IMG/VR virus record: IMGVR_UViG_2878930440_000003
Source: a virus
Lineage: Duplodnaviria > Heunggongvirae > Uroviricota > Caudoviricetes
DNA: 46,548 nucleotides
Strand: one strand, 5' to 3'
Position numbers and translations under genes: made by a program. The notes beneath the pieces are model-generated. The model saw nothing but the letters and a program-made list of their open reading frames with translations. It did not search any database and was not told the origin of the DNA. Below, piece by piece: positions 2,654-44,390 of this stretch (positions are counted from its first letter, which is position 1; each line of letters starts with the position of its first letter).

Positions 2654-2745
2654 CAGTTTTTATGGTGTGTCTCACCTTTTTAAAATTAGTAACCTTGTTT
2701 CTTAATTACATTGCAAAGATACAAAGAATATCTGAAATATGCAAA
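2654..2745 (-). promoter_or_regulatory. Bacteroidota sigma-A promoter (TTTG-N20-TATCTTTG) plus leader motif GGTGAGACACACC..AACTG
   Basis: Plus-strand caaa 2742-2745, caaagata 2714-2721, ggtgtgtctcacc 2664-2676. Confidence 0.8.
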
Positions 2746-2902
2746 CTTTTTAATGTGTTTCTTTTATTCTTTAATATATCATAACACATAACACCAATAA
2801 TTTACTGACGTTAACACAAAAATCCCCACCACTACATTATTATATATAGTGATGGGGCAAACATTTAAAACAAAATAGCATTATGGATTTCTACGATTAC
2901 TA

Positions 2903-3178
2903 TCAAACTAAATCGTCCACATAAGCCCATTTATAGATGGCGTTTGATTTCGTGAACCTATTCCACCATTCCTCGCCTAAGAAATTCAGATGCTTGAAAC
3001 GCTTGCGAACCTTGGTCAGACCGACAATGCGTCTGTTATACTCAGGCAGCTCTTCAACAGAATGCCAAGCACCTTCTTTTTGATATTTCATTCCCAACTC
3101 CAAGGCTTGCTTGGCTACCTGCCTTGCACCTTGACTAAAGTCTATCTTATCAATCAACAATTCTAAGTCCATAATCAA
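2903..3178 (-). CDS. Hypothetical phage protein
   Basis: 91 aa ORF, WH...KWAY motif. Confidence 0.7.
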   Translation of the reverse strand: MIMDLELLIDKIDFSQGARQVAKQALELGMKYQKEGAWHSVEELPEYNRRIVGLTKVRKRFKHLNFLGEEWWNRFTKSNAIYKWAYVDDLV

Positions 3179-3414
3179 ATAACTTTTATGTTAACTTTGT
3201 CTTCAAAAAACGCTTCTAGCACTTCCTTGGCTTTTGCATCCGCTTCATCCAAGTCTTTGCACTTGATAACCCTAACATTATAGCCTATAGGATTACGTAA
3301 CTCATAACTACCTTCAACCTTAACCAACCGGATGAAAATATCTCCACCTTTGAAGCGGTACGAATATCCTTCTGTTGCCTCGTTCCATTGTCTAACTATG
3401 TTCCTCACCGCCAT
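3175..3414 (-). CDS. Hypothetical phage protein
   Basis: 79 aa ORF overlapping neighbours. Confidence 0.65.
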   Translation of the reverse strand: MAVRNIVRQWNEATEGYSYRFKGGDIFIRLVKVEGSYELRNPIGYNVRVIKCKDLDEADAKAKEVLEAFFEDKVNIKVI

Positions 3415-3619
3415 AATATCTTTGCACTTTTAACAATGTAGCACTAGCACCCTCAATGTAGGCTGCGATAATGACATTTCTATATAGCTCACTATTTTCC
3501 TTATCAATTCCTACCAAGCCTTCTGTTGATTTCAAAGGCTCAATTGTAAATTTATAAGCCTCCTCTACTATCCAGCTAGGAACACCATTTGAAATCAAAT
3601 TCTTACAATACTCATTCAT
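3392..3619 (-). CDS. Hypothetical phage protein
   Basis: 75 aa ORF after the non-coding region. Confidence 0.65.
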   Translation of the reverse strand: MNEYCKNLISNGVPSWIVEEAYKFTIEPLKSTEGLVGIDKENSELYRNVIIAAYIEGASATLLKVQRYYGGEEHS

Positions 3620-3637
3620 GATTTTACCTTTTAAAAT

Positions 3638-3774
3638 TAGTGGATGACAAGGGATTTAAACCCTTGTTGGTGTCAACACCTCCCCAGTGACCTGGTACAC
3701 GGAATGTTTAATCAGAAAATCCGCTCCAAGTTTGCGAGGGTCGCATTGCTTTCAGTTGCCAATGCCACTCATCC
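3638..3774 (-). ncRNA. tRNA-like structured element (non-canonical)
   Basis: GGAUGA/UCAUCC acceptor-like stem, CAAGGG-UUUAAAU-CCCUUG T-arm-like hairpin, GCAUUG/CAAUGC D-like hairpin, GGUG/CACC variable arm, 3' ACUA. Confidence 0.4.
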
Positions 3775-4068
3775 GTTTGTCAGCGACAGATGCGAATTTG
3801 AAGATTGTGCACCATTCCCAACCTTGCCCAAGGGTTTCTGCCGCTGACTAATAGGCATTTGCCAATGGTTGTCGGCAAATTTTAAGTGTTCACATCTTAC
3901 GATGCGGTATTAACTATCTCCCTGCCCAAGGGAACAACCATTAGCGATAGGCTATTTGTAGTTATGAAACATTCAAATAAAGCCGTGCGACTCCTAGTTT
4001 ATCATCATGCCCCCACGCAAGGCATCACACGGCTTTGGCACGTGGGTATTTGGTAGATTATGGCTTTC
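3775..4068 (-). ncRNA. Candidate structured RNA upstream of the tRNA-like element
   Basis: No ORF on the operon strand; several 9-12 bp helices; repeated CCCUUGGGCA hairpin loop. Confidence 0.4.
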
Positions 4069-4230
4069 CTACCTCGTCTTTCTTATATCATTCCGCTGCC
4101 ATCCTGCCGCCCAGTCTACCGGAGCTGCATTACAGCAGTGAAAAGATGTATTCACATTATATAAGGCTGCTCTGAACTCATCCAATTCTTCTGCCGAGAA
4201 CGGACAATCCTTGTTTACCCGCCTTTTCAT
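4069..4230 (-). CDS. Small hypothetical protein (MKRRVNKDCPFS..., 53 aa; not in track)
   Basis: Manual translation; ATGA overlap with upstream ORF. Confidence 0.55.
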   Translation of the reverse strand: MKRRVNKDCPFSAEELDEFRAALYNVNTSFHCCNAAPVDWAAGWQRNDIRKTR

Positions 4231-4385
4231 AATTTCACTACCTTATAGCCAAGCCGACTTGCAAGATCAAGAAAAATATTAAAGTATTCCTGTGCAACTT
4301 CTGTTCCTGATACTACGCCATTTTCAAACGTGAAGTAACGCTTTGTATTGTAAAGCGTATCTTCCAAGCAATAAGTTTCTTTCAT
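4227..4385 (-). CDS. Small hypothetical protein (MKETYCLEDT..., 52 aa; not in track)
   Basis: Manual translation; starts 9 nt after the methylase stop. Confidence 0.55.
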   Translation of the reverse strand: MKETYCLEDTLYNTKRYFTFENGVVSGTEVAQEYFNIFLDLASRLGYKVVKL

Positions 4386-4394
4386 TTCTTCTTT

Positions 4395-5120
4395 CTAATC
4401 AATTGTAAACAACCTTTCGACTGGTCTCTTTGTTATATTCGGGTTAAGAGAGTTTGTTACTTCCTTTTCCCAAACACATCTGAACTCTTGGGGCATCTGA
4501 TACTCGCTGATAAATACCTTATGACCTCTTCTAGCCATTTCCATGCACCATATATAGAATCTTTCGTAATCGAAATTCTTTGATACATCATACTTTTTCG
4601 TAGCTTTGTAAGGCAAATCGCAATACACTATACTCCTATCCGGTATCACAAGTTCATCATAACTGCCGCTATAAAACTCGACACCTTTGAGAAGAGGCAC
4701 ATCACGCATTGTATTTTCTATCTGCTCCCTTATGTAATCTCTTGCCTTTCCGTTCTTGCCGACAACATTATGTCCGCTATAGCCACCATCAAAGAAACGT
4801 CCATTAAAGCTCGCCATAAAGCCAATTAGTCCGACACCTGCTTCTGTGAAGAATTTATTCTTTCCGTGATAGCAGTCTCTTGCAAAGTTATACAACGTCT
4901 TACTAATATGGTTGAAGACAAACCCATCATTCTGAAGATACTTCCACATTTCGATAAGATACCTATTCTTATCGTTGGCAATCCTTCGATACGTGTCCGG
5001 AACGTTCTCAATAACGCTACAGCCACCACAGAAAGCATCTACAAACGTATCATGCTCTTTGTCCAGCATAATCGGCAATATTTCATGCACGATTCTAGCC
5101 TTACTACCCATGTACTTCAT
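4395..5120 (-). CDS. DNA adenine methyltransferase (Dam/D12-class-like)
   Basis: KYMGSK N-terminus, DAFCGG SAM motif, NDKN, CDLPY (DPPY-like) motif. Confidence 0.85.
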   Translation of the reverse strand: MKYMGSKARIVHEILPIMLDKEHDTFVDAFCGGCSVIENVPDTYRRIANDKNRYLIEMWKYLQNDGFVFNHISKTLYNFARDCYHGKNKFFTEAGVGLIGFMASFNGRFFDGGYSGHNVVGKNGKARDYIREQIENTMRDVPLLKGVEFYSGSYDELVIPDRSIVYCDLPYKATKKYDVSKNFDYERFYIWCMEMARRGHKVFISEYQMPQEFRCVWEKEVTNSLNPNITKRPVERLFTID

Positions 5121-5374
5121 CCTATCATCTTCTTTATCATTTTAACACCTCGGTTGCCAAACTTTCGCTCGACTACCTCATTATAACTCACTCCATCAAT
5201 GGAACACTCATCCGGATAGCACTCTTCAAGCCAATCTGTGAACTTCAGCAAATTGAAGACCAACTCTTTTCTTGCTAAAAGAAACCGCATATCAACGAAC
5301 TTTCCAAAGCTTACTCCGAAGATTTTCTGAAATTCATTACCTATAGGCAAAAAATCGCTTGACTCTATCTTCAT
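5117..5374 (-). CDS. Hypothetical phage protein
   Basis: 85 aa ORF with overlapping start/stop. Confidence 0.7.
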   Translation of the reverse strand: MKIESSDFLPIGNEFQKIFGVSFGKFVDMRFLLARKELVFNLLKFTDWLEECYPDECSIDGVSYNEVVERKFGNRGVKMIKKMIG

Positions 5375-6198
5375 TAGCTAACTTTCTTGGTTGTTGTTCT
5401 TTCCAAAGGATAGCCACTCTTCATAAAGTCACTAATTCCTATGTAAGTTCGCTGTAAATCTTTCTCATCGTCCTTCAGATCTTCCGTTGCGTTGATAGCC
5501 GCCTCATTCAAAGTCTGTTCGTCAAAGACACCTTTTCTTACCTTATCGAAATAAGAAAGAATTTCTTTTGTCATCAAATGGTCAGCCAATCTCTTGAAAT
5601 CCTTATCCATCACTAATGCCATGAAATCATAAGAATTTTCAAAGGCCAAGATAGGAGCAAAGTCCTTGAACGCTTGCATTAAGTTAACGTGCAATTCTTC
5701 AAACAGCTTACGGATGATATTCTCGTAAGTTCCCAAACAAAGGTTGGTCAGATTGTACAGGATGATTGCATTTGCATAAACTCCCGATTTTTCACCAATT
5801 CCTAAGTTCTGTAACCTCACCGCAAGCTTATCTCGCAACTTGTATAAGTCTTCACTAATCTTGTCATAGAACGTCATTGCGAATTCGTTATTGAAATCTG
5901 CATTAGGAACATAAGCGTCATAATACTTAATCACCTTGCGAAGGTTCTTCTTGCAGTCTACCCACTTCTTCTTAACTTCAAACCTAACGCATTTCTTCTT
6001 CAGAATACTCTTTTCGATTTTCTGCATGAAGCACTCTGCCAACACCATTTCAACATAGACATATTGCTGAAGATAACCTCTAGTAATAACCATAACCTTG
6101 TTTACTTCTGTTTCGGTCATTCCATTCGGAACACTGATAATTATCTTCTTACCACCTACGTTCAATAAGACTCTTCGGAAACAATTTACACTAGGCAT
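5374..6198 (-). CDS. Hypothetical helical protein
   Basis: 274 aa ORF in operon. Confidence 0.8.
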   Translation of the reverse strand: MPSVNCFRRVLLNVGGKKIIISVPNGMTETEVNKVMVITRGYLQQYVYVEMVLAECFMQKIEKSILKKKCVRFEVKKKWVDCKKNLRKVIKYYDAYVPNADFNNEFAMTFYDKISEDLYKLRDKLAVRLQNLGIGEKSGVYANAIILYNLTNLCLGTYENIIRKLFEELHVNLMQAFKDFAPILAFENSYDFMALVMDKDFKRLADHLMTKEILSYFDKVRKGVFDEQTLNEAAINATEDLKDDEKDLQRTYIGISDFMKSGYPLERTTTKKVS

Positions 6199-6487
6199 GA
6201 TGCTTTCTGTTTGAATATTCTACTACCTTATTATAGCACTCCGTTCTCACCAAATCCTCGACCCGATTCAATGTGCAAGCCTCATGAGTATCATTCATAT
6301 TGACTTGTGGACAGCAAATCTGATAAAAAAACTTTGTTCTGATGGTAAAACCAAAGAACTTGATTTGCTCCTTGAATACCCGACCGGACACCACCTTATC
6401 AAGTTTCTTCTTGCCATCGAAGAGATTCAAACTCTCTTCTCTACGATATACAATATCGGTCTTAACCGAAAAAATCTTTCCGAACAT
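6191..6487 (-). CDS. Hypothetical protein
   Basis: 98 aa ORF in operon. Confidence 0.65.
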   Translation of the reverse strand: MFGKIFSVKTDIVYRREESLNLFDGKKKLDKVVSGRVFKEQIKFFGFTIRTKFFYQICCPQVNMNDTHEACTLNRVEDLVRTECYNKVVEYSNRKHHA

Positions 6488-6489
6488 AA

Positions 6490-6837
6490 CTATTCCTCCA
6501 AATTCCTAAGCGTTTCCAAACTCTCATCATTATCAACATCATAGCCGATACGATATTCGTTACCAATTCTTGCACCAATGTATACCTCTTCGGCATCCAA
6601 GATATAACGGGACATCTGTTCACGAACCTTTATCTGTTCTTCATTCAACCCAAGTACATCAAAGCACTCTTCCTGCAATGACTTATATGGTTTCGTTCCC
6701 ATATATGAGACATAAGCCAGCTTGCCTTCCTGATGCAATGGCTCCCACTTCTCCCACCAATGGTTGCGATACTCCAAGATACCTCTTTCTACTCCATCGG
6801 CACAAACATATTTAACTATTCGTATTCTCATTATCAA
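6490..6837 (-). CDS. Hypothetical protein
   Basis: 115 aa ORF in operon. Confidence 0.7.
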   Translation of the reverse strand: MIMRIRIVKYVCADGVERGILEYRNHWWEKWEPLHQEGKLAYVSYMGTKPYKSLQEECFDVLGLNEEQIKVREQMSRYILDAEEVYIGARIGNEYRIGYDVDNDESLETLRNLEE

Positions 6838-7000
6838 CCTTTTTTAAAACAACTTTAACTGTCTTTCCTTGGCACTTGAACACACGAGACTTAATCTTGT
6901 ATGTAAGATTGTTAATTACGACTTTATCCCCTACACAAGGCATAAAATGGAAATCGTAATTTTTCAAAATGATACTGCCTTCATACTCGAATTCAACCAT
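6812..7000 (-). CDS. Small hypothetical protein
   Basis: 62 aa, FMPCVGDKV motif, overlaps neighbours. Confidence 0.6.
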   Translation of the reverse strand: MVEFEYEGSIILKNYDFHFMPCVGDKVVINNLTYKIKSRVFKCQGKTVKVVLKKVDNENTNS

Positions 7001-7226
7001 TTTTCTGCTCTCCTAATGTTTCCCTATATTTATCTAACATTATTGAATTAATCTCAGACCAAAAAGTTACAATTACGCCTTCGAAATCAACATTATGTTC
7101 ATGTGCTATAAAATTTCCAGCACTGACAAAATCAAAATAGCCTTCAATCGTCTCTTGTGTACCTGTACATGTACATGTTATGCCATTCTTGACATACTTA
7201 GCCACAAAATAATAGCATTTCTTCAT
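6993..7226 (-). CDS. Hypothetical protein
   Basis: 77 aa ORF in operon. Confidence 0.6.
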   Translation of the reverse strand: MKKCYYFVAKYVKNGITCTCTGTQETIEGYFDFVSAGNFIAHEHNVDFEGVIVTFWSEINSIMLDKYRETLGEQKNG

Positions 7227-7513
7227 CGCAACAACTCCCTAATAAATTCGTTACGCATCGGCTCAACGATGCTTGTGTACAAACTCTGCTTATCTTCGGG
7301 AATGTCATCCGGTGTAATAGAGAACATCAACAAATAAGACATCGGAATCTTCAATACCTTGCATATTGCATCAATCTTACTCTTACGTGGAAACGTTCTT
7401 CCGGTCTCCATAAACAACATATTTGTCTCACTACAACCGATAGCCTTACCAAGTTGTCGTTGGGTCAAGCCCTTGCTTACCCTCATTGTCTTAATCGCCT
7501 TTCCTAAATCCAT
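7223..7513 (-). CDS. XRE/Cro-CI family HTH transcriptional regulator
   Basis: LGKAIKTMR..KGLTQRQLGKAIGCS...METGRTFP pattern. Confidence 0.85.
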   Translation of the reverse strand: MDLGKAIKTMRVSKGLTQRQLGKAIGCSETNMLFMETGRTFPRKSKIDAICKVLKIPMSYLLMFSITPDDIPEDKQSLYTSIVEPMRNEFIRELLR

Positions 7514-7521
7514 TTAACCTC

Positions 7522-7833
7522 CTATTTTAAATTTTCAAATCTATTCTTAATTGCAATCATGGCATCATTGACACCATCCTTATATCCAACAGAATACAAG
7601 GAACAATCCTCTTCGCTCGGTTTTCCGGTTTTTGATTTCAAAAACTCTTCTATCTCACGGAAACCATACTCCAAGAATCTGAGAAACATAGCGTTCTTCG
7701 TGATAGCTGGTCGTAGAACATCTTTAACCCAATCCCAGCCATCACCATAACCCAAAGTGAAACTAGAATTATTACAATATCTCACTTTCGGCTCATCCAA
7801 CCATTGTTTTATTATTTCCTTTTTTGTCATCAT
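7522..7833 (-). CDS. Hypothetical protein, first gene after promoter at ~7890-7930
   Basis: 103 aa ORF with internally repeated GYxDG motif. Confidence 0.7.
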   Translation of the reverse strand: MMTKKEIIKQWLDEPKVRYCNNSSFTLGYGDGWDWVKDVLRPAITKNAMFLRFLEYGFREIEEFLKSKTGKPSEEDCSLYSVGYKDGVNDAMIAIKNRFENLK

Positions 7834-7836
7834 TCC

Positions 7837-7955
7837 CAGTTTTTATGGTGTGTCTCACCTTTTTAAAATTAGTAACCTTGTTTCTTAATTGCAATGCAAA
7901 GATACAAAGAATATTCAAAACATGCAAGCATTTTAATGTGTTTCTTTATTTTATT
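7837..7955 (-). promoter_or_regulatory. Promoter and leader motif; near-duplicate of 2654-2775
   Basis: ggtgtgtctcacc 7847-7859, tgcaaagatac, ttttaatgtgttt all shared with the 2654 copy. Confidence 0.8.
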
Positions 7956-8241
7956 AATGTATTTTAATTATTTAATATAGTTTCTACCATTTATTTTAAA
8001 CTTTTTACATTTTTCTCTTTCTCAAACACTCTTTCTACTATCACCTTTATCCTTAATTTCGTCTTACTATGTTCTTTAACGTGTGCCTTACGCTTTGTAG
8101 TTTTTGCACCTTGCAGCAATTTCTGTCAGTCGCTTCCCTTGTACTTTCGTAGTGCTACCTTTCTTGCATATCAAGACATTTCCTATACTTGAATCTTGTA
8201 TTTCCAAGAAATGGACGCAACAAAAACAACTTCTAAAATTC

Positions 8242-8520
8242 TTATCCCTTTGACATTTCCTTTTTAAGTTTCTTTCTTTGAGCCAAAAACATAACAATCT
8301 CATCGAAATCATCGCAATTCAAGAGCATTTGTCCAACCTGCCATTCCGCTGCTTTCTGCTTGGCATCCTCCATGCCCTTTGCTAAGAATGTGATTTTCTT
8401 GTCTTGGCTTCGATTCTCTACAGTAACTTCAAGTGTACCATATTCAAGTTCGGTAGTCTTCATACTGAGACCTTCATCAAATATCCTCAACAAATGATTA
8501 AAAAGATTACTTCTTTCCAT
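8242..8520 (-). CDS. Hypothetical protein
   Basis: 92 aa ORF in operon. Confidence 0.7.
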   Translation of the reverse strand: MERSNLFNHLLRIFDEGLSMKTTELEYGTLEVTVENRSQDKKITFLAKGMEDAKQKAAEWQVGQMLLNCDDFDEIVMFLAQRKKLKKEMSKG

Positions 8521-8905: not shown

Positions 8906-8942
8906 ATCACATATCCTTAAAAAGTTTCTTAATCTCGCTCTT

Positions 8943-12054: not shown

Positions 12055-12190
12055 TCTAAAAAGAAATCCTTACCCTTCATTCGTCTGACACCGAAATCTA
12101 GGTAAGGATTATCGTGATGTGGCTTTCGCCACGGAAAATCTTATTGATTCTTGTAAGCGTGTCAGCACCAACAAAGCACGCTGCAAAGAT
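12055..12190 (-). promoter_or_regulatory. Promoter with structured, attenuator-like leader
   Basis: TATCTTTG at ~12184-12191; GUGGC-GAAA-GCCAC hairpin; AAUCCUUACC/GGUAAGGAUU stem followed by UCUUUUU. Confidence 0.55.
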
Positions 12191-12347
12191 ACTAATTTAT
12201 TTTCAAACTGCAAGGGTTTTAATGTGTTCTTCTGCTCTTATTGCGCATTTTTAACACACAACACAATTTTAGTTACGTATATAAAACTACAAATACATTA
12301 AACCGCTTGCAAATTTAACATTTAATACTCTAAGGCATTTTCAAGAC

Positions 12348-12434: not shown

Positions 12435-13028
12435 CTAATAAAATAACTTTTTCTTATATTTTACCGTGAGAAAGAAAATCATTGTAACCAGCATCAAGGA
12501 AACGACCCAAAAGGAAATCATACCGAATTTCCAATAGAACAAATCCCATCCCTCCAAGTCTTTCTCAATATATTCCTTTTTGGTCTGGGCGATACTCAAT
12601 TCTCTATTTATGCTATCCCTCTGAGCCTTGTATATACTCGCTCGCTCTGCTATCTCCTTATAATGAATAAGGCTATCACGAACCTTGGATAGTTCCTTGC
12701 TGTCCCTGTATCTAATCTCTATATGAGTAGAATCCTTACATAGAACCTTACCACTCTCATCTACCCTTGTCTTGACATCATCCTTGATGTAAGTGGAATC
12801 CTTAACCTGCTTTTCGGTCTGCTCCCAATGGTAAGATAGCAAGCTATCCCGAATAAGCTTGACCCTTTCGTTGACAATTGAGTCCCAGTGAGCATAAGTA
12901 GTAGTGTCTCGCACCACCTTTTCCACTTCTACATATCTCGTTGTCCGGCATCCGTACATCATCAGCATGATGAAGAAACCTACCAATATGGTAACGAGCC
13001 AACGCCACCAATCAAATCTTAGTTGCAT
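12435..13028 (-). CDS. u-spanin/Rz-like lysis lipoprotein
   Basis: N-terminal signal with lipobox MYGC, coiled middle, C-terminal TM helix; near lysis genes. Confidence 0.65.
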   Translation of the reverse strand: MQLRFDWWRWLVTILVGFFIMLMMYGCRTTRYVEVEKVVRDTTTYAHWDSIVNERVKLIRDSLLSYHWEQTEKQVKDSTYIKDDVKTRVDESGKVLCKDSTHIEIRYRDSKELSKVRDSLIHYKEIAERASIYKAQRDSINRELSIAQTKKEYIEKDLEGWDLFYWKFGMISFWVVSLMLVTMIFFLTVKYKKKLFY

Positions 13029-13231
13029 ATCAACCTCCTTTTTGAGTGCAAAGGTACAAATTATATTATATATGACACAAAAAGAGCCATTTGGGTTATT
13101 TCCAAAACCCGAATAAGTGAAAAACTAGCCATTTTCTGTTAACGAATGTAATCAAGCCTACTATTATAGCCAAAAGACGTTAAAGCAAAGAAAATGATTT
13201 GATTTTTTATTGCATATTTCAAATATTCTTT

Positions 13232-13279
13232 GTATCTTTGTAACAGAATTAGAAAGGTGAGACACACCTTCAGAAACTG
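13232..13279 (+). promoter_or_regulatory. Promoter (-7 TATCTTTG) plus leader motif GGTGAGACACACC..AACTG
   Basis: Motif at 13256-13268. Confidence 0.75.
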
Positions 13280-16341: not shown

Positions 16342-16501
16342 TTCCTTATGTTTTTTGTTGCAAAGATAGCTATTTATATATAATAATGTGAAAATAGCCG
16401 AGTCAGAAAACTACACAATTAATTTTTGTGCAAATAATTAAATATTTCCTTAAACAAAGTTATAACACATTAAATTATTTGCTCTATCAATAAAATCTCA
16501 T

Positions 16502-16541
16502 TACCTTTGCAAATACAGGTGAGTCACACCATAAAAAACTG
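16502..16541 (+). promoter_or_regulatory. Promoter (TACCTTTG) plus leader motif variant GGTGAGTCACACC..AACTG
   Basis: Motif at 16518-16530. Confidence 0.75.
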
Positions 16542-16548
16542 AATAAAA

Positions 16549-17190
16549 ATGAAGATAATAGAACAAGATACAATAGACATCATTAAGGCGCACATAAATG
16601 AACGACCAAGATACAAGTTGGCACAAAGAATGGGTGTCAGCGTGAAATTCTTGTATAAGATTCTACATGATTGCAATTGTAAAATCGAACATAAAAGACC
16701 TGTTCCGAAACCCAACAAGAAGCGTGATGAACAAATTGCAAAGCTTTACACCAACCATTCAGTCAAAGAGATTGCCGAGATTGTAGGGTGTCATCCGTCT
16801 ACAGTAGGAAAGGCGGTAAAAAGACTAAAGCTTACTCATTCGAATGAAACTATCGAAAGACTTAAAAAGAATAGTTTGGCAAATTTAAAGAAAGCGTATG
16901 AGAAAGCAACAATAAGTAAAAGGGTAAAAAGCTGGCAAAGAACCATGCAGATGGAGAAATTCAGAGTTATATCCTGCATTCCGCAACAGACAAGATTCAA
17001 ATTTGCGGATATGCCTATAAAAGCATATCATGCAAAGTACAATCTCATAACAAAGCATGGATATTTCGCTTTCGAAGGTGAGCCATACACCATAGGTTAT
17101 GACCGGAATACTCATAGGATGGATGAAGAATACTATAAGAACAAATATGGATTTTCTTTTGAGGAGGATGAAGAATGCCAAGAAGATTAA
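16549..17190 (+). CDS. Multi-HTH DNA-binding protein (paralogue 1)
   Basis: Two HTH-like units (RYKLAQRMGVS, VKEIAEIVGCHPSTV); C-terminal GEPY..YD..EEYY..KYGFSF. Confidence 0.75.
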   Translation: MKIIEQDTIDIIKAHINERPRYKLAQRMGVSVKFLYKILHDCNCKIEHKRPVPKPNKKRDEQIAKLYTNHSVKEIAEIVGCHPSTVGKAVKRLKLTHSNETIERLKKNSLANLKKAYEKATISKRVKSWQRTMQMEKFRVISCIPQQTRFKFADMPIKAYHAKYNLITKHGYFAFEGEPYTIGYDRNTHRMDEEYYKNKYGFSFEEDEECQED

Positions 17191-17792
17191 CAAAAGAACA
17201 GATAGACTATATTAAAGTCCACATCAATGACTACCCACGAAAGGAAGTAGCCAAGGCTGCTGGTGTTACACTACACACCTTATATAAATATATCACTATT
17301 TTAGGTGGCACAAAAATAGACAACAAGTTGAGTAAAGAAACCATCAGCCAAATTTCCGTCATGTACCAAACGATGACAGCAAGGGAAATTTCCGAAGTGT
17401 TGAATATTCCTCAATCTACAATATTAGGACAAGTCAGTAAGCTTGGTTTAAAACACAATGTAGAAACGATAAATAGAATTCGTAAAGAGCGAAACAAGTC
17501 TCTAAGAAACTATTGGAATAAAGAAAGATATGCAAGTAAAGGAAGAAAACTTCACATGCAATACAAAATGGATGAACTTAGAGTTATGTCGGGCAAGCCG
17601 CAAGAGACAAAGTTGAGGATAAGAAAGCTCTCCTCAAAGGCTTTGAATGCTAAGATGTATTTGCGAAAGTCTTATAACTATTTCTACTCTAAGGGTGAGC
17701 CGTTCATTCTCTGCTATGACTCCGAGACAAAAAGACACCCTAAAGAGGAATACTATACTGAAAAGTTTGGTTTCAAGTTCGTGTGTGCTTAA
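17175..17792 (+). CDS. Multi-HTH DNA-binding protein (paralogue 2)
   Basis: RKEVAKAAGVT, AREISEVLNIPQST; C-terminal GEPF..YD..EEYY..KFGFKF. Confidence 0.75.
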   Translation: MPRRLTKEQIDYIKVHINDYPRKEVAKAAGVTLHTLYKYITILGGTKIDNKLSKETISQISVMYQTMTAREISEVLNIPQSTILGQVSKLGLKHNVETINRIRKERNKSLRNYWNKERYASKGRKLHMQYKMDELRVMSGKPQETKLRIRKLSSKALNAKMYLRKSYNYFYSKGEPFILCYDSETKRHPKEEYYTEKFGFKFVCA

Positions 17793-21081: not shown

Positions 21082-21426
21082 ATGAGTTGTTCGAAAATCA
21101 AAAATTACCTTTATGAACGTTTTAATGAGGATTTTAACGTTCTATCTGAGAATGAAAATCGAGTTATCATTACATTTGATGATAATGACTTGTCGGTACT
21201 CGTAAACAAGATGGAGAATAAATTATTCATTCTCGTTCCGCTAACTAATATGCATTCGTTTGAACATCATCCGGATTGGATCTTGGTAGATGGCGAACGC
21301 ATCAATAGCAACCTATTTTGGAAGGAATGCGGCAACCAAGTGATAGAATATCAAGGTGATGCCCCTATAGCTATCAAGCAAGACACCATAGAGAGAATTG
21401 TTAATGATTTCATTAAAAACAGATAA
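21082..21426 (+). CDS. Hypothetical protein
   Basis: 114 aa ORF after a stem-loop at 21033-21061. Confidence 0.7.
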   Translation: MSCSKIKNYLYERFNEDFNVLSENENRVIITFDDNDLSVLVNKMENKLFILVPLTNMHSFEHHPDWILVDGERINSNLFWKECGNQVIEYQGDAPIAIKQDTIERIVNDFIKNR

Positions 21427-21474
21427 CGTTTTAAAATTTGCATTAATTTATTTGCAAAGCCATCTTTTTTGTCG

Positions 21475-21520
21475 TATCTTTGCATTGTAATAAAAATGGT
21501 GAGACACACCGAAACAACTG
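21475..21520 (+). promoter_or_regulatory. Promoter (TATCTTTG) plus leader motif GGTGAGACACACC-GAAAC-AACTG
   Basis: Motif at 21498-21510. Confidence 0.75.
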
Positions 21521-21585
21521 TGTTTTACAAACTTAATTTTCGTAGATAAAGATATTAATATATCAATATAGAAAAAAGCAAAATT

Positions 21586-22095
21586 ATGACAGAAAAAGGA
21601 TATTTAATCAAGAAAAAAGTATTATTCATTGATTTAGATGACACGATTATTACAACTATATCAGGAAACACCTTTCCTACAGATGTAACAGATTTCAAAA
21701 TCCGTAAAGAGGTTTTGGATAAGATTGTAGATGCATTCCCTACTCTTTACTATGTTGAAATAGTCTCAAACCAAGGAGGCATCCCTCAATTTGTTGACGA
21801 ACAGGATTTTATCGGCAAGATTAAGGCTATTGAAAGCTTTATGCAAAAATATCTTCGCAATCATACCGGACGAAATATCTTCGTCAACTCTATGTATTGT
21901 CCATCGAATGCAGAAATAGATATGCGAAAGCCAAATACAGGAATGCTAGAATCATATTCTTCTTGGGAAAAAAGAGAGTTGATAATGATAGGCGATGCTA
22001 GTGGAAAAGAAGGTGACTTCTCGGACTCCGACAAACAATGTGCGGAGAATTTCGGTATTGAGTACATAGATATAGAAGACTTCTTGAAAATGTAA
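21586..22095 (+). CDS. HAD-IIIA phosphatase, polynucleotide/DNA 3'-phosphatase-like
   Basis: FIDLDDT (DxDxT), SNQGG, RKPNTGM, GDASG..SDSD..A. Confidence 0.85.
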   Translation: MTEKGYLIKKKVLFIDLDDTIITTISGNTFPTDVTDFKIRKEVLDKIVDAFPTLYYVEIVSNQGGIPQFVDEQDFIGKIKAIESFMQKYLRNHTGRNIFVNSMYCPSNAEIDMRKPNTGMLESYSSWEKRELIMIGDASGKEGDFSDSDKQCAENFGIEYIDIEDFLKM

Positions 22096-22340: not shown

Positions 22341-22382
22341 CAAATATAGACAAAAATTCCGAAACCACCAAATTTTTCATCA

Positions 22383-36670: not shown

Positions 36671-36826
36671 AATAAAAAAGACTATTTACTAAAGAATCTA
36701 TCTTTATTTAGTAAACAATCTTTTTTATTTACACTAGACTTTTATTCACCCTTATAGAGTACTTATACTAACTATCTAATAGTTAAATATTTGTATTTTT
36801 GTTACAAAAGTAATTATATTTGTCGT

Positions 36827-38688: not shown

Positions 38689-38734
38689 TTTCTTGTATTT
38701 ATTATTGTTTCGCTATATATTGGGCAGATGGGAT

Positions 38735-38860
38735 TTATACCTTGCCTCTAATTTTGTTATACATATAGAAAGGAACGGCTAGTATGAACATCGGTATTGC
38801 CAATACCATAGCTATAGCCAAGTTCGCAATCTTCATTAATCTTTTTCCGTTTGCCTTCAT
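38735..38860 (-). CDS. Small single-TM protein (41 aa; not in track)
   Basis: Manual translation MKANGKRLMKIANLAIAMVLAIPMFILAVPFY... Confidence 0.5.
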   Translation of the reverse strand: MKANGKRLMKIANLAIAMVLAIPMFILAVPFYMYNKIRGKV

Positions 38861-38873
38861 AATCTTTCGATAT

Positions 38874-39056
38874 TTATGAGTTGACCAATTGTCCTACCTT
38901 GTTTATCAAAGGAGTAAAGAGCCACGACACCCATATATTGAACGCTTTCTTTCTCCTTTTTTCGAGAAACATAGAAACAATCATAAATGGAATGAGCATA
39001 CCTATTGTTATTGCCGCTATTATGTACCCTAGTAATATTCTTATAATCTTTTTCAT
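38874..39056 (-). CDS. Small membrane protein
   Basis: 60 aa with a hydrophobic helix. Confidence 0.6.
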   Translation of the reverse strand: MKKIIRILLGYIIAAITIGMLIPFMIVSMFLEKRRKKAFNIWVSWLFTPLINKVGQLVNS

Positions 39057-39067
39057 TGCTTATTCGT

Positions 39068-39874
39068 TTATATTCGTTTTGCTACTTTCATAAGCATTTC
39101 TCCCTTGATTACCTTGTCGGTTTCGATAAAGCCAAAGGTGCTCATAAAACGTTCCTTGTTCTCTATATTATCAAAGGAAAGCATGACGTAAGACTCGGCT
39201 TCTAAAGCTTTTTCCGCTGCCTTGGTATTTACCTCTTTCTTTACCTGTTGCATACGTTCTTTATTCGCTTGATATTGAGCCTCTTGCTGCTGATTGGCTA
39301 TAATTTGATTTTGTTCTATCTGTCGTCTCTGCTCTTCTTGCACTTCCTTTGGTGCTTGTACTTTTCTGTTTTCGCTTTCTTGGGCAAATGGGTCTAGTAA
39401 GGAATTAAGTTCTTTACCTAGCTCATCTTCGCCTTCAGTCTTTACCATTGCATCATAGCCGAACAGGGATAAGTCTTCTTCCGTTAATCCGGCATCCATA
39501 TAGTTTATGTCCGGAAGTAACTCACGGACTTTCATGTCATCCCATTCTCCATGAGCATTCTCGGAATTAAGCATGAAATTCAGTTCAACTTCGGTCTTGT
39601 AATCCATATTTACAGCCTCAGCCAAAAGAGTATAATCCTTTTCGGGATAGCCCATAATCTCATCCACGATGGTTACTTTTTGGTTGCCGCCTACGATGGT
39701 CATTGTTTGCTTATTGACGGTTATACCACCAACAACGCCATATTTTCTTATGGAACGTTTCAATGTAGCTTTCTGCTGCGGTGAAATCTTCCTTGGATTA
39801 TATGGTGCTATCTGCACTTCGGAGCGTTTGAACTCTTCTTGCTTGCCTGTGAAATAATCTCTTGGTTTCGTCAT
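39068..39874 (-). CDS. ParB/Srx-like domain protein (paralogue B) with Gln-rich insertion
   Basis: APYNPRKIS..LKRSIRKYG..GITVN..IVGGNQK. Confidence 0.8.
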   Translation of the reverse strand: MTKPRDYFTGKQEEFKRSEVQIAPYNPRKISPQQKATLKRSIRKYGVVGGITVNKQTMTIVGGNQKVTIVDEIMGYPEKDYTLLAEAVNMDYKTEVELNFMLNSENAHGEWDDMKVRELLPDINYMDAGLTEEDLSLFGYDAMVKTEGEDELGKELNSLLDPFAQESENRKVQAPKEVQEEQRRQIEQNQIIANQQQEAQYQANKERMQQVKKEVNTKAAEKALEAESYVMLSFDNIENKERFMSTFGFIETDKVIKGEMLMKVAKRI

Positions 39875-39896
39875 CTTATCAACTCATTGTTTCTTG

Positions 39897-39966
39897 CAAA
39901 GGTATGAATAATAATTGTTTAAGAGAAATGTTTACTTGCGTGTCTTTTCACTTTGTCTTTTAAGTG
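39897..39966 (-). promoter_or_regulatory. Late promoter: TACCTTTG with CACTT-N8-AAGTG box 44 nt upstream
   Basis: caaaggta 39897-39904; box 39949-39966. Confidence 0.7.
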
Positions 39967-40031
39967 AAATAACATATCGCAACAATATATCAATTGGCTT
40001 GCATTTTGGTTAATTTTGCATAAAAAAAGAT

Positions 40032-40250
40032 ATGGGAGACGTTGGTAATAATGGGGCATATGCTAGGCTGAGAGCACAAGCTACCTCTATGCGGAGAAAA
40101 GCCGAGTCGGTTGGTAACAAGCTACAAGCTATAGCTGAAGGTATAGCTAAGAAGTATGGAGCAAGGGTCACTCCTATCAATTACAAGAGTGTTGACTCCA
40201 TTGTACGCAAGGCTAAGGGCGAGGCTAATGGTATTAAAGACATTATCTAA
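40032..40250 (+). pseudogene. Truncated RelA/SpoT-like nucleotidyltransferase N-terminal fragment
   Basis: KSVDSIVRKAK...GIKDI then stop; own TAATTTTG promoter at 40011-40018. Confidence 0.45.
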
Positions 40251-40466
40251 AGCCTCATCGCAATATGCCGTACTAGTTACATATGCGCCTCTAGAAATCG
40301 CCTTGTAACAATCTCTAAGACCAAGCAAACCACCAATAAGCTTAGATGCATCATAGCAAGTAAACTTATTCAAGTCCAATGCATCAATAGCATTAATACC
40401 ATTTTCTGTAATAACACCTTTAATATCATTGATGAACTTCTTCTGATTTTCGGTAATCATCTTCAT
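40122..40466 (-). CDS. Hypothetical protein; C-terminal ~40 aa probably read through a deletion junction
   Basis: After ALDNVFNTI the sequence is the antisense of the 40032 ORF. Confidence 0.5.
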   Translation of the reverse strand: MKMITENQKKFINDIKGVITENGINAIDALDLNKFTCYDASKLIGGLLGLRDCYKAISRGAYVTSTAYCDEALDNVFNTISLALSLAYNGVNTLVIDRSDPCSILLSYTFSYSL

Positions 40467-40739
40467 AACAATTGTGCTAGTTTTTAACGTGCTCGCTCTG
40501 CACTATCTTGCAAGAAACTTGTCTTGCGGCAAATCTTCAAGTATCTCTTAAATACATTGCAAAGATACAAATTTATTTTCTAACTTGCAAATGTTTTATG
40601 GTTTTTCTTTATTTATTTAACCTTTCTTTACTTATAACGTTTCTATATTACATACATTAACAATAAAGGCAGACTTTCACAAGCCTGCCAATACATATAA
40701 AGAAGATAATACATTATTATATATAAATTAAAAAGAACA

Positions 40740-41474
40740 TTATCTGTTGTCATATCTGTAGAGTATTACCCTACTTTGTGGAAATACCTTATATATACGT
40801 TCTAAGTCTTCGGGTGCATTATCCCTTAGCCATGCAAAACAATCCAAGTCCAAAGACAAACCGCCCGACGCATTCCCAACCTCTGCATTCTCAGAGCGCA
40901 ATGCTCTGGAGTACATTATCGGCTTAGGCAGATGCCGATGTTTCATATATTGCAAGATTTGCTTTTGAGTAAAATCAGCAAGAGGATAACAATTTCCACC
41001 ATGAATGTAATTTTCATCCTCATACGACTTCAACATAAGACTTCGGTTCATCGAGTCTGCTTTCTTCATACCAAAGAATACGTATTCTATTCCGAAACGC
41101 TTTTTTAAGGCTTTTACTACCATAGAAAGATTAAGAACCTTTACTTTTGGATTCGGAACGCAATAAACTCCATAATGAAGATTGTATGTTGTATTCCAAT
41201 GTGGTATCTGCTCGAACTCTATCTTCGGGTATCTAGCCTTCAGCCAGTTTATCCATCATTGTATATGCTCTAAGTCTTTTACAAGATACATAAATACACA
41301 TACTATCCGCTCAAACTTATCATATAATAAGTCCAATGTAACAATGGAGTCCTTGCCAAGTGACATCATAACAATGCAATCCGGACTCTGTTCCCTAGCC
41401 ATATCAATTACCATATTGGCAACATCTATAGGGTTCTTCCTAACAACTAGAGGCTTTATTCGCTTGCGTCCCAT
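40740..41474 (-). pseudogene. PAPS-reductase/PP-loop-like protein (paralogue B) with one in-frame TGA
   Basis: MSLGKDS PP-loop; KDLEHIQ-TGA(41256-41258)-WINWLKARYP is in frame with 40740..41123; the paralogue has Arg at that position. Confidence 0.8.
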
Positions 41475-41476
41475 AT

Positions 41477-42256
41477 TTACAACAAACCTAAAATCTGACT
41501 TCCGGAAATACGCATAGAGTTAGCGGCTTCCATGTGCAACATATCACAGAAAAGCCGTTTTTGCTCAAAACTTTCGAAATCAATGAAAATGAAGTTATCA
41601 ATATCTTCCTTTCTTTTCTTTCCGACATCAGTACAATGCTGTTTCTGATCCTTGACATCTTCCTTTGTCATCTTTGGCTTAGCTGCGTGCTCGGCTACAA
41701 TCTCTTCAGATGTTTTTTCGATGTTGGGTAATTCGGTCATTGGCGTTGGGGTAGTAACTGAAATTATAGGTTCATTCAAGAAATCCTCGCTAAAGTCATC
41801 CATGCCCGAATCCTTCAATGATGCTTCCAAATCATCTTGCAACATCTTGATTTGTTCAGTATCCTGTTCCGTGAAGCCAGCAGCCTTGAAGTCTATTTCA
41901 TCTATGCTAAAGTTCTTGGCAACCAAGTTGTAATCTATCGGGTCTTGCGACTTCGCCATAAACAACAATTGCTCTTTCTCGGTCTTTTCGTCAAAATCAA
42001 CGGCTTCTACCTTGATGTCATAATCAGTTTCGGGAGTACCATCATAACCTTGGATAAGGTCAACGCTCATCACTCGTTTATGCCCATCTATGAGATTTCC
42101 AGTTGTCTCATTCCATTGAATACCCCCAATGAGACCAACTTTCTTAATATTGGCTTTTTGCTGTTTAATGTCCGCATCGGTATGTACCTTCGGGTTGCAA
42201 GGGTTCAAGTTTATTTGAGACCTCTTGATTATCTTTGTTTCACTTCCTTTTTTCAT
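41477..42256 (-). CDS. ParB/Srx-like domain protein (paralogue A)
   Basis: NPCNPKVH..ANIKKVGLIGGIQWN..LIDGHKRV. Confidence 0.85.
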   Translation of the reverse strand: MKKGSETKIIKRSQINLNPCNPKVHTDADIKQQKANIKKVGLIGGIQWNETTGNLIDGHKRVMSVDLIQGYDGTPETDYDIKVEAVDFDEKTEKEQLLFMAKSQDPIDYNLVAKNFSIDEIDFKAAGFTEQDTEQIKMLQDDLEASLKDSGMDDFSEDFLNEPIISVTTPTPMTELPNIEKTSEEIVAEHAAKPKMTKEDVKDQKQHCTDVGKKRKEDIDNFIFIDFESFEQKRLFCDMLHMEAANSMRISGSQILGLL

Positions 42257-42957
42257 TTCAGTTCCTCCTTGTTTTTATCAGCTTTCAACAGAACTATCCT
42301 TGCCATTGGGAATACCTTGTATATTTTCTCTAAATCTGCCGGATAAAACTCTTTGAGAAATTTCTGATACTCAATATCCTCAACATCAACTCCTGAACTT
42401 TGTTTATTCGTTCCATTTGCTTCTGGGTTCTTTAAACGATGGTCAAGAATATAATTCATTATTTCCTGGTTTTTATATGTAGATAAAGGATAGAATTTCT
42501 TCGTCTTCCAATTGATAGCTTCCTTTCCATCCGTATAACTTCTAAGCATAAGCCGTCTGTTCAAAGAATCGGATTGTTTAAATCCATAACAAGCCCACTC
42601 TACACCAAGTCTCTTCCTGAGTTTTTCGGTTATATCAGCTAAAGTCCATTGTCTTTGCTTAGGGTCTTGTTTTATTCCCATATATCCGGTTTTTATATCA
42701 TAAAATAAAGCATAATGAGGAACTTGAACAAACTCAATGTTCGGGTACTTGGTTTTAGCGTAATTATAGTAACGCATAATATGTTCCAAGTCTTTTACTA
42801 TATACATGAATACTACCACAACTCTCTTGAACTTCTTGTAGCATAAGTCAAGCAATACGATAGAATCCTTTCCACTCAGAGAATGGAAAAGTAATATACT
42901 ATCTGTCTCCTTGGAAACATCATCAATGATTTCTCTTGCTCTTTTTAGTTCTTGCAT
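42253..42957 (-). CDS. PAPS-reductase/PP-loop-like protein (paralogue A)
   Basis: HSLSGKDS PP-loop, GFKQSDSLNRRLML, FYPLSTY. Confidence 0.85.
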   Translation of the reverse strand: MQELKRAREIIDDVSKETDSILLFHSLSGKDSIVLLDLCYKKFKRVVVVFMYIVKDLEHIMRYYNYAKTKYPNIEFVQVPHYALFYDIKTGYMGIKQDPKQRQWTLADITEKLRKRLGVEWACYGFKQSDSLNRRLMLRSYTDGKEAINWKTKKFYPLSTYKNQEIMNYILDHRLKNPEANGTNKQSSGVDVEDIEYQKFLKEFYPADLEKIYKVFPMARIVLLKADKNKEELK

Positions 42958-42971
42958 ACATTATTCTCCTT

Positions 42972-43011
42972 AAAAACAAGGGGTGAATGAAAGTTAATTC
43001 ATTCTACCCCT
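42972..43011 (-). terminator. Intrinsic terminator after the Arg-rich gene
   Basis: GGGGU-GAAUGAA/UUCAUUC-ACCCC stem followed by UUGUUUUU. Confidence 0.7.
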
Positions 43012-43019
43012 CTTGACTT

Positions 43020-43244
43020 TTAACCTCTTCTAAGTCTGCGGTTTACACGTTCTGTGACATTGTTAGCTGCGGTACGTGCTGCCAAAGTACGCATAGCACC
43101 ACCATAAGTAGTTCCTTGTGCGCCTGTGTTTCGGTACTCAACATTTCTGCCACGTTCACGTCTTTCACCAGCCCTAAGACCAGTTGTACGATTTGTTACC
43201 GCTCTCCATTGAGAATAACGATAACCTTTTGATGCCTCTGACAT
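43020..43244 (-). CDS. Small Arg-rich basic protein
   Basis: 16 Arg in 74 aa. Confidence 0.7.
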   Translation of the reverse strand: MSEASKGYRYSQWRAVTNRTTGLRAGERRERGRNVEYRNTGAQGTTYGGAMRTLAARTAANNVTERVNRRLRRG

Positions 43245-43322
43245 AGTTGTAACGTTTTAAGTCCACGAATCATAAACTACTCCCCTTGGGGAATTATCTA
43301 GGCTCGGTGGACTTACGCCCAC

Positions 43323-43838
43323 CTACTTTAGAGTCGTTTCTGTTACCTTGTCAATAACAAAGAAGAAAAACAAAGGACGCTCTTTTTCCTTTTTAAGCTC
43401 CAACGCTTCGTACATTTCATCCAAATCATGGCTATCATACTTTTCGTGAAGAAAATCAATATCTTCTTTCATAACGATACAAGTATCATTCACCAAAACA
43501 TCACAATCAAGATACCACGAGTTGTTATAATCATGGAAGTGGATTGTCTTTACTACTCGCAAAGGGTCAACAATACCATCCTCCTGCGCTTTGATAACAT
43601 CCTCTTCTTCACCATGCTTCTTAAGGAACTCCAAAACATCCTTGTCGAACAAACGACCAATATAATGGTCTGTATAGGCTCGATACTCAACTTGCTTCTT
43701 TCCTTCAAGAATCTCCTTGGCATTCTTTCTTGTCATAATCAAGTTAAGAACTTCAATAGCCTTGGCTGGCTTGAAATCGGGATACTTCTCTTTAAATGCG
43801 CTTACCTGCGCATCAAAATCTTCTTTGTTATTACTCAT
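43323..43838 (-). CDS. ASCH/PUA-like domain protein
   Basis: LNLIM...AKEILEGKKQVEYR motif (GxKxxExR) typical of ASCH. Confidence 0.65.
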   Translation of the reverse strand: MSNNKEDFDAQVSAFKEKYPDFKPAKAIEVLNLIMTRKNAKEILEGKKQVEYRAYTDHYIGRLFDKDVLEFLKKHGEEEDVIKAQEDGIVDPLRVVKTIHFHDYNNSWYLDCDVLVNDTCIVMKEDIDFLHEKYDSHDLDEMYEALELKKEKERPLFFFFVIDKVTETTLK

Positions 43839-43938
43839 AATTAATTATTTCAAGGAACGCAATGCAAAGATAGCATAATTCTTCCATCCAAGCAAATGCG
43901 TTCGGGTTATTAAACTCACTTTTAATAAATGGTGAAAA

Positions 43939-44307
43939 TTACTTGTTCTCTAAAGGTTTGGTTGCCTTATTAATTTGCATCCGTTCCTTTTTGCTAAACA
44001 TATCTTTGTAATTCTGAGAATCATCAATGACAAACTTTTCTTCTTTCTTCATATTCATATCTCCTATATGTTTTAGATAATCATTCTTAATCTTTCTCCA
44101 GCAATGCTCGCATCTTGAAGACTTCGTGAACTCTGTCGGCTCGCAAGGGTCAACATCTTTCAAAGAATCAAACTCATGTGGCAGTACCTTAAACACGTTC
44201 TCAAAATGTTCTTTATTGTATCTTAAAGCTTCGTCACGATAACGAAACCAAGTACAACATTCTTGAATGCTTGTGTTCTTGCTGAAAATCAAATATGCTT
44301 TATTCAT
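43939..44307 (-). CDS. Hypothetical protein
   Basis: 122 aa, first gene after the leader motif. Confidence 0.7.
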   Translation of the reverse strand: MNKAYLIFSKNTSIQECCTWFRYRDEALRYNKEHFENVFKVLPHEFDSLKDVDPCEPTEFTKSSRCEHCWRKIKNDYLKHIGDMNMKKEEKFVIDDSQNYKDMFSKKERMQINKATKPLENK

Positions 44308-44316
44308 AATCCGATA

Positions 44317-44390
44317 CAGTTGTTTCGGTGTGTCTCACCTTTTTATATTACGATGCAAAGATAAGAATAACACCTTAATTTTGCAAATTT
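44317..44390 (-). promoter_or_regulatory. Promoter (TATCTTTG) plus leader motif GGTGAGACACACC-GAAAC-AACTG
   Basis: ggtgtgtctcacc 44327-44339. Confidence 0.75.

Follow-up and report, generated by a model that had tools for sequence, protein, structure and literature searches.

The nut sites of phages lambda and P22 and the put sites of HK022 each combine a small leader hairpin carrying a fixed pentaloop with a single-stranded box, are oriented with transcription and recur in several phage operons. A leader element of comparable outline, a nascent hairpin together with downstream sequence, is known from Bacteroidota as UpxY opsX (compare RfaH ops), and in the class-2 opsX of B. fragilis a pause hairpin has the start codon 9 nt downstream (PMC11685472). 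Short sequence-specific sites at ribosome-binding regions are exemplified by the T4 RegA/gp43 operators, a type common to many messages, and by the MS2 coat hairpin. The stoperators of mycobacteriophage L5 are 13-nt asymmetric motifs present in many intergenic copies in one orientation, and both preQ1-I (a hairpin with an A-rich tail and CU(A/G)) and guanidine-II (mini-ykkC; tandem mini-hairpins with fixed loops) are very small RNAs adjacent to the ribosome-binding site (RBS). Here we analyze an element that resembles each of these in part. It was noticed in a 46,548-nt stretch of tailed-phage DNA (IMG/VR record IMGVR_UViG_2878930440_000003; hereafter the window, 46.5 kb), and a single copy, which we call the unit, consists of a hairpin with an AGNCA loop, an A-rich linker and an AACNG box. 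We found units with covarying stems in unrelated phages of Bacteroidota and Bacillota, mostly a short distance before start codons, and we tentatively read the unit as a portable leader RNA module recognized by conserved host machinery.

An initial reading of the window from its sequence only had likened the element to the boxB/boxA architecture of lambda nut sites, an analogy that breaks down in detail. The nut pentaloop is GNRA-like (GAAAA/GACAA), whereas that of the unit is A-G-N-C-A in all; boxA (CGCUCUUA-like) lies 5' of boxB, whereas the unit has an A run upstream and its sole conserved box, AACNG, 3' of the hairpin. Moreover, a terminator scan of window positions 1-40000 found no strong terminator inside any unit-led operon that would have to be bypassed, strong terminators lying only at operon ends (including 2857-2824, 12384-12355 and 22283-22250). 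The unit also differs from nut in tracking start codons and in spanning phyla with no shared specific protein detected. UpxY and RfaH are specialized NusG paralogs, whereas a PF02357 search of five unit-carrying records (G002, G003, G004, G006 and G007) gave no match, its controls being positive. The consensus non-template hairpin of opsX, GCG..AGC (PMC11685472), is absent in or next to the units; opsX is locus-specific and about 40 bp long, whereas the unit measures 23-27 nt and is identical across loci and phyla. Unlike the T4 and MS2 operators, the unit lies upstream of the Shine-Dalgarno (SD) sequence or AUG without overlap, can be tandem, and no cognate phage protein was identified for it. 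The L5 stoperators have a fixed sequence and serve a single repressor as duplex DNA, whereas the arms of the unit covary as pairs and the unit occurs in unrelated phages; preQ1-I and guanidine-II differ from it in that the unit has neither loop-tail pairing nor an association with metabolic genes. The earlier reading knew of no description of the motif, and we likewise found none in Rfam or in the literature searched by motif strings, which returned nothing relevant. The window had no Rfam 15 match at gathering scores, the arrays of nine loci had none either, the sole match in those loci being an unrelated skipping-rope RNA, and Rfam scans at relaxed E-values gave noise only, with PreQ1 as the best match.

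The RNA hairpin is well supported. The unit has a 3-4-bp covarying stem closed by G-C, a fixed AGNCA pentaloop, an A-rich linker of 3-8 nt and the AACNG box (consensus N-G-N-G-[A-G-N-C-A]-C-N'-C-N', linker, A-A-C-N-G). The 5' stem arm is G-rich (G-N-G), so the stem sequence is not entirely free. Among related copies, the outer pair changes from GGTG/CACC to CGTG/CACG or TGTG/CACA, with one G.U pair besides, and unrelated loci keep the one loop on stems such as GGG/CCC, CGG/CCG, GAG/CTC, ATGG/CCAT, GTGC/GCAC and others. To keep the unit collection non-circular, we required only G-AGNCA-C and a nearby AACTG, with no other stem condition. Its 225 unique units comprised 42 stem types and were Watson-Crick at stem pairs 2, 3 and 4 in 222, 217 and 177 cases; mismatches leaned to G.U (10) over A.C (4), which fits sense-strand RNA. 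Within 575 kb of anchor-selected loci, stems of at least 3 bp accompanied 42 of 55 non-anchor AGACA-N4-13-AACTG matches, compared with one of nine reversed-sequence controls. Pair counts in a 63-unit alignment, whose units had been picked for having stems, were above all shuffles and all slid registers. ViennaRNA assigned the unit hairpin a probability of at least 0.94 in five of the six window leaders, the rest of the leader being unstructured and A-rich. The earlier proposal of an RNA-type hairpin with a single-stranded box thus has backing from the compensatory changes in the stem, the strict bias to one strand and the placement in leaders, and the motif scan of relatives found both orientation bias and stem covariation.

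The window has a GC content of 39% and codes for TerL, a portal protein, a 2781-aa tail-type protein, an integrase, a GH108 lysin, methylases and several helix-turn-helix (HTH) proteins. It makes up about 40% of a Segatella (Prevotella) copri phage of ~116 kb: ~50 kb align with a 116-kb IMG/VR record (G002) at 94-99% identity, and phage contigs binned with a Segatella copri metagenome-assembled genome (G001) have words in common with it. The motif GGTGAGWCACACC occurs exactly six times in the window and not once in 100 dinucleotide shuffles; with two mismatches allowed, the only further matches were these six sites read on the opposite strand. The coordinates and strands given in the sequence-only reading all proved exact (cores in Table 1), and its account of their surroundings holds. 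A Bacteroidota-type promoter of the form TTTG/TTGC-N19-20-TAnnTTTG precedes every copy, N5-6 and AACTG follow every copy, and all six are oriented with the downstream genes and stand upstream of the first gene, at variable spacing: the start codon is 3-10 nt past AACTG at four sites and 46-65 nt past it at two. The unit 1 promoter belongs to a promoter-plus-leader cassette of ~100 nt that is reused at several loci, and the unit 2 promoter is of the same cassette type. Operons of the window end in a terminator and restart from their own promoter. Roughly 18-20 host-type consensus promoter-like sites are present, and only six (about a third) have a unit, the late structural operons being without it. 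The consensus promoters that lack a unit indicate that it marks only a subset of transcription units.

Outside the window, G002 holds 15 units, all intergenic and all co-oriented with the local gene block (random-orientation probability about 3e-5), and G001 holds 12. An exact-pattern scan of IMG/VR matched at least 107 stretches, mostly relatives of the window phage; among the matches listed, six loci share no DNA with that phage and have the same geometry, unit-N8-11-ATG. The proviruses G004-G007 carry one unit each and G003 three in tandem, and Bacteroides phage BS-TP2, the closest cultured relative by TerL, has none. A one-genome-per-species scan (596 Gb) returned 82 stretches, about the chance expectation for 18 specified bases. 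Genuine matches were told by context, namely arrays and start-codon spacing; about a dozen, from GC-rich taxa such as Streptomyces, Nitrospirales and Panacagrimonas, look accidental. Single units 6-11 nt before an ATG were found in Prevotella/Segatella, Phocaeicola, Hoylesella, Rikenellaceae, Chitinophagaceae, Lentimicrobiaceae and Ignavibacteria. In most of the 28 unrelated gene families found downstream, the start lies 6-11 nt past AACTG (mode 9-10), and this range holds at all ten independent Bacteroidota loci from other taxa. Units are also found inside operons after stop codons and after terminators, with no promoter close by; a promoter is thus not required, and the unit is tied most constantly to the start codon rather than the promoter.

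Some loci in this set are of separate interest. At 66764-66776(-) of G002 (locus L020), a TAccTTTG promoter and a unit with a G.U outer pair (GGTGAGACACACT) lead directly into a terminator-like hairpin with no open reading frame (ORF); the product may be a small RNA of ~70 nt that contains the unit, for example a decoy or sponge. On contig C241 of G001 (L011/L190), a promoter and unit precede a 378-aa gene that starts 16 nt past AACTG and, judged by its N-terminal sequence, looks like a TnpB (IS605 OrfB type) inside the phage. Several contigs binned as Waltera intestinalis or Lachnospiraceae (L169, L171, L176, L222, L223, L225, L240) have Bacteroidota-type TAnnTTTG promoters and the Segatella-phage leader cassette; they are probably phage contigs placed in the wrong bin.

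In Lachnospiraceae, Erysipelotrichaceae, Ruminococcus, Blautia, Eubacterium and other Bacillota, units form arrays of two to four with differing stems, directly before the SD sequence. These arrays precede the gene for a head scaffolding protein of ~200 aa (phrog_2303), with the major capsid gene next. When scaffold loci were sampled by the protein alone, ignoring the motif, 505 IMG/VR stretches were found to encode relatives; in the best 80 (49 distinct leaders), which we examined, units lay within 160 nt before the scaffold start at 79 loci, and 74 of these 79 had two or three. Stray matches in the 230 kb around the scaffold genes amounted to two sense and one antisense. The last unit of an array ends 15-16 nt before the ATG, with the SD sequence between, and Streptococcus phage Javan351, a prophage of Streptococcus oralis AZ_3a, has the same leader.

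The Bacillota arrays are part of a longer conserved leader (L221 3085-3240, L245 2250-2395 and the upstream regions of L247-L326). It runs from an intrinsic terminator through a mini hairpin GYC-CGAA-GRC (or a longer CAAACACGA loop) and AAACUAC or AAAGGUGCGUG to two or three units and the SD sequence, with no sigma-A promoter recognizable between terminator and units. In one Lachnospiraceae prophage (L173), a skipping-rope RNA (RF02924, 44 bits) lies at 380-475, ~200 nt upstream of the scaffold-gene array. Two canonical-type Bacillota phages, Javan351 (21225-21539; L341) and G003 (12758-13108), have a gene immediately before the array for a small conserved protein (about 85-115 aa, VW.SKTLQN.KAL.ST), for which phmmer gave no match in the variant-type Anaerostipes phage.

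The reading that we favor, if only tentatively, is of the unit as a portable leader RNA module near the start codon that conserved host machinery reads and that sets the translation and/or stability of the message. It rests on the start-codon spacing, on the identity of loops and tails across phyla in the absence of a shared specific protein, and on the scaffold and capsid genes served. On this view, every copy would be transcribed as part of the 5' leader and form one unit of a small RNA module that acts in cis, at the upstream (5') edge of the ribosome-binding region. Bacteroidota rarely use SD sequences, and there AACUG typically stands 6-11 nt before the AUG; in Bacillota the module directly abuts the SD sequence. 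Its reader would be either the 30S subunit at initiation or some universal RNA-binding factor, and the outcome a change in translation and/or stability of the downstream message. In the Segatella phage, the module would give a common post-transcriptional handle on one set of host-promoter-driven operons. We infer that the module is portable and host-read from the presence of identical loops and tails before unrelated genes of unrelated phages from two phyla with no specific protein in common. Action at the RNA level, the host partner and the direction of the effect are likewise things that we infer, a positive effect being the most likely. The genes served include those for head scaffolding and the major capsid protein, which we expect to need very high expression, among the top phage genes.

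Several observations weigh against this reading. A covariance model (R1) matched in only three of 101 host-family genomes, in each case on phage contigs or mobile DNA, and such near-absence from host genomes would be odd if a housekeeping factor reads the unit. The start codon is 40-150 nt away in about a quarter of the downstream gene families, including the two window sites with distant starts. Anaerostipes phage AC844P2 and a few IMG/VR relatives have NGACA loops and AACGG/AAUGG tails, and these Lachnospiraceae-phage variants hint that the partner is specific to a lineage and co-evolves with the unit, unlike universal machinery. Finally, we know of no accessible 16S rRNA segment for which complementarity to AACUG or the loop could be argued. 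In five carrier genomes, clear matches were confined to loci already known, with one weak extra (E = 0.28). The host genes that form exceptions are yicC, an endoribonuclease gene, in four uncultured Bacteroidales species, and one murQ-like gene. The yicC leaders (L192, L205, L209, L232) run -7 box, unit, N6-8, ATG, an arrangement that would allow autoregulation or YicC being the reader as possibilities. A preprint on YicC describes a preference for small, partly structured RNAs, and its abstract names no recognition motif (10.64898/2026.03.25.714237).

Candidate partners and folds were examined in turn. An all-against-all comparison of nine phage proteomes by BLASTP and phmmer for a shared phage-encoded binder gave generic families only (TerL, methylases, tail and HTH proteins), and phmmer found in these proteomes no family that the carriers have in common and the non-carrier BS-TP2 lacks. 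Most carriers encode generic HTH proteins, as does BS-TP2; an HTH_23-type family of 205-234 aa is present in G002, G007 and the Anaerostipes phage and absent from the other carriers. The scaffold protein was rejected as binder, since the Segatella phage has no scaffold homologue. Ten small ORFs of unit-led operons had no Pfam match, with no search aimed at arginine-rich peptides made. Of the phage regulon proposed by the sequence-only reading, one part stands: a set of operons is marked in the window phage. A private regulon with a phage-encoded binder is unlikely, because the unrelated Bacteroidota and Bacillota carriers share no specific protein. A phage RNA-polymerase promoter (a T7- or N4-like hairpin) was rejected on several grounds: the PHROG matches of the 2781-aa protein are of tail type and the PDB holds no relative; no full-length RNA polymerase is annotated in the 35-kb Bacillota carriers, Javan351 having only a 76-aa putative fragment; consensus host promoters precede most units; and the linker varies in length. 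Pairing of loop and tail in a pseudoknot, suggested by the Anaerostipes-phage variants, was also dropped, as other variants break the covariation.

The main rival to the favored reading is a transcription-elongation signal, in which the nascent hairpin and AACNG act on RNA polymerase directly, as in HK022 put, or via NusA, pausing or modifying the elongation complex ~10 nt ahead of the start codon; the outcome would be processive antitermination or coupling of transcription to translation, much as for lambda nut or Bacteroides UpxY opsX. The KH domains of NusA bind AACU-containing boxC RNA in M. tuberculosis, and both RNA polymerase and NusA are universal, which fits conservation across phyla. 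Leader position and strict orientation agree with such a signal. So does a hairpin followed by C-U-G about 8-12 nt on, as at a hairpin-stabilized pause, and the spacing AACUG-N9/10-AUG is near that of the class-2 opsX hairpin with its start codon at +9 (PMC11685472). Units often lie just past terminator-like hairpins, and several can succeed one another along one operon. Nevertheless, we consider an elongation signal unlikely, since the five carrier records searched have no NusG paralog and the scanned unit-led operons have no strong internal terminators, each restarting from its own promoter. In addition, the single array of a Bacillota phage is downstream of the terminator, not upstream, the linker varies from 3 to 8 nt, position -10 is C where the consensus pause has G, the loop is not GNRA-like and boxA is missing. 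Less probable still is an operator for a phage-encoded RNA-binding protein that represses or times translation in the manner of T4 RegA, MS2 coat or lambda N, possibly as scaffold autoregulation in Bacillota. The RBS-proximal position would suit an operator of this kind, as would the sequence-specific loop, tail and G-N-G stem arm, the marking of only a subset of window promoters and the small conserved gene just upstream of the array in Javan351 and G003; the variant loop and tail sets within one Lachnospiraceae phage lineage are what co-evolving pairs would produce. Nucleotide-identical loops and tails in two phyla with no detectable common protein are nonetheless hard to reconcile with it. 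Neither a carrier-common family absent from BS-TP2 nor, in the Segatella phage, a scaffold family was found, and the host genes yicC and the murQ-like gene carry the unit.

We think it rather improbable that the unit is an RNA processing or stability signal, either a site at which a host endoribonuclease cuts in the A-rich stretch by the hairpin or a 5' stabilizer, giving stable separate message segments. Its appeal lies in an order that recurs in both phyla with no recognizable promoter between (terminator-like hairpin, ~15-25 nt of A-rich sequence, unit, start codon), in hairpins that begin within about 10 nt of the expected transcription start at many promoters, and in the unit in the yicC leaders. 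A plain 5' stabilizer, however, needs no fixed loop or tail, the commonest cassette has the unit about 30 nt from the expected 5' end, and the abstract of the YicC preprint, as said, points to no motif. The DNA operator named as the alternative in the sequence-only reading would be an asymmetric site for a phage repressor, akin to the 13-bp stoperator of L5, that blocks transcription depending on orientation. The 13-bp core is intergenic, present in many copies per genome and in a single orientation relative to transcription, and the phage has an integrase and several HTH proteins. A reader of duplex DNA, in contrast, would not demand compensatory stem changes (97-99% Watson-Crick at pairs 2-3) around a fixed loop and tail. 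The same site recurs in two phyla, in unrelated phages for which no carrier-specific repressor family was found, and its position follows start codons, not promoters. Stem covariation thus speaks against the operator, to which we attach very little weight. We attach equally little to a miniature ligand-sensing RNA, whether a preQ1-I-like H-type pseudoknot or guanidine-II-like paired hairpins, gating the RBS. A universal ligand would account for cross-phylum conservation, the hairpin, A-rich tail and CUG have the outline of preQ1-I, and tandem small hairpins by an SD sequence recall mini-ykkC. PreQ1 (RF00522) was the best sub-threshold Rfam match, yet at 13.3 bits against a cut-off of 39 (E = 1.1, 91-nt search), and the preQ1-I fold needs a loop longer than 5 nt. 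Tail position 4 (U/G/A) varies independently of loop position 1, AGACA loops occurring with AACAG and AAUGG tails; guanidine-II needs two hairpins with ACGR tetraloops, whereas the loops here are not ACGR and the Bacteroidota units are single; and the downstream genes are functionally unrelated.

The units of the window and the features around them are collected in Table 1. Unit 4 leads into two adjacent paralogous HTH proteins (16549-17792(+); 213 and 205 aa; HTH_23/sigma-70 region-4-like), its first genes, with relatives in provirus G007 and the Anaerostipes phage. Unit 5 is the only window site with a competing downstream helix. It has an alternative pairing with downstream TGTGTTTTAC: within 21498-21545(+), GUGAGACACA pairs with downstream UGUGUUUUAC in a 10-bp helix (minimum free energy -10.6) that beats the unit 5 hairpin and could be a switch.

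Table 1. Units in the window with their promoters and downstream genes, and other transcription features
Feature	Position	Strand	Description
Unit 1	2654-2676	-	Core 2664-2676; GGTG-AGACA-CACC + ATAAA + AACTG; 38.8 bits; stem pair probability 0.95
Unit 1 promoter	2714-2745	-	TTTG-N20-TATCTTTG; -7 box ends 37 nt before unit
Gene after unit 1	2383-2643		86-aa ORF; GTG start (2643) 10 nt downstream
Unit 2	7837-7859	-	Core 7847-7859; hairpin of unit 1 + ATAAA + AACTG
Unit 2 promoter	7897-7927	-	TTGC-N19-TATCTTTG; 37 nt before unit
Gene after unit 2	7522-7833		103-aa ORF; ATG codons (7833, 7830) 3 and 6 nt downstream
Next gene after unit 2	7223-7513		XRE-type HTH gene
Unit 3	13256-13279	+	Core 13256-13268; hairpin + TTCAGA + AACTG; stem extendable to 6 bp, AAGGTG/CACCTT
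Unit 3 promoter	13210-13240	+	TTGC-N19-TATCTTTG; 15 nt before unit
Gene after unit 3	13327		First ATG, 46-47 nt downstream
Unit 4	16518-16541	+	Core 16518-16530; GGTG-AGTCA-CACC (third loop base T) + ATAAAA + AACTG
Unit 4 promoter	16478-16509	+	TTTG-N20-TACCTTTG; 8 nt before unit
Gene after unit 4	16549		213-aa HTH_23 protein; ATG 7 nt downstream
Unit 5	21498-21520	+	Core 21498-21510; hairpin + GAAAC + AACTG
Unit 5 promoter	21451-21482	+	TTTG-N20-TATCTTTG; 15 nt before unit
Gene after unit 5	21586-22095		PNK 3'-phosphatase; start 65 nt downstream
Unit 6	44317-44339	-	Core 44327-44339; hairpin + GAAAC + AACTG
Unit 6 promoter	44356-44387	-	TTTG-N20-TATCTTTG; 16 nt before unit
Gene after unit 6	43939-44307		122-aa ORF; ATG (44307) 9 nt downstream
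Promoters without unit	12184-12213, 13049-13081, 16361-16393, 22341-22372, 40560-40591, 43865-43896	-	Consensus host-type
Strong intrinsic terminator	2824-2857	-	14-bp stem + T run; ends unit-2-led operon; just upstream of unit 1 promoter

We rate the unit as a new family among small cis-acting leader RNA signals. A bolder form of the favored reading, which we regard as doubtful, makes it an undescribed autonomous expression signal that works across phyla, is bound directly by the 30S subunit or a universal factor (NusA, S1) and is used by phages of SD-poor Bacteroidota and of SD-using Bacillota alike to drive or time key proteins (early genes, scaffold, capsid). If binding of this kind proved true, the unit would represent a new and portable class of element for translation initiation or coupling in bacteria. 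If instead a phage factor reads the unit, a new phage regulatory circuit would come into view. How translation starts in Bacteroidota without SD pairing, and how their phages program gene expression, are largely open questions; a 25-nt module that stands before at least 28 unrelated gene families, and in tandem before the scaffold/capsid genes of hundreds of gut Bacillota phages, offers a compact, testable handle on them. Should the unit boost expression alone, it would also be of use as a part when gut Bacteroidales and Lachnospiraceae are engineered.

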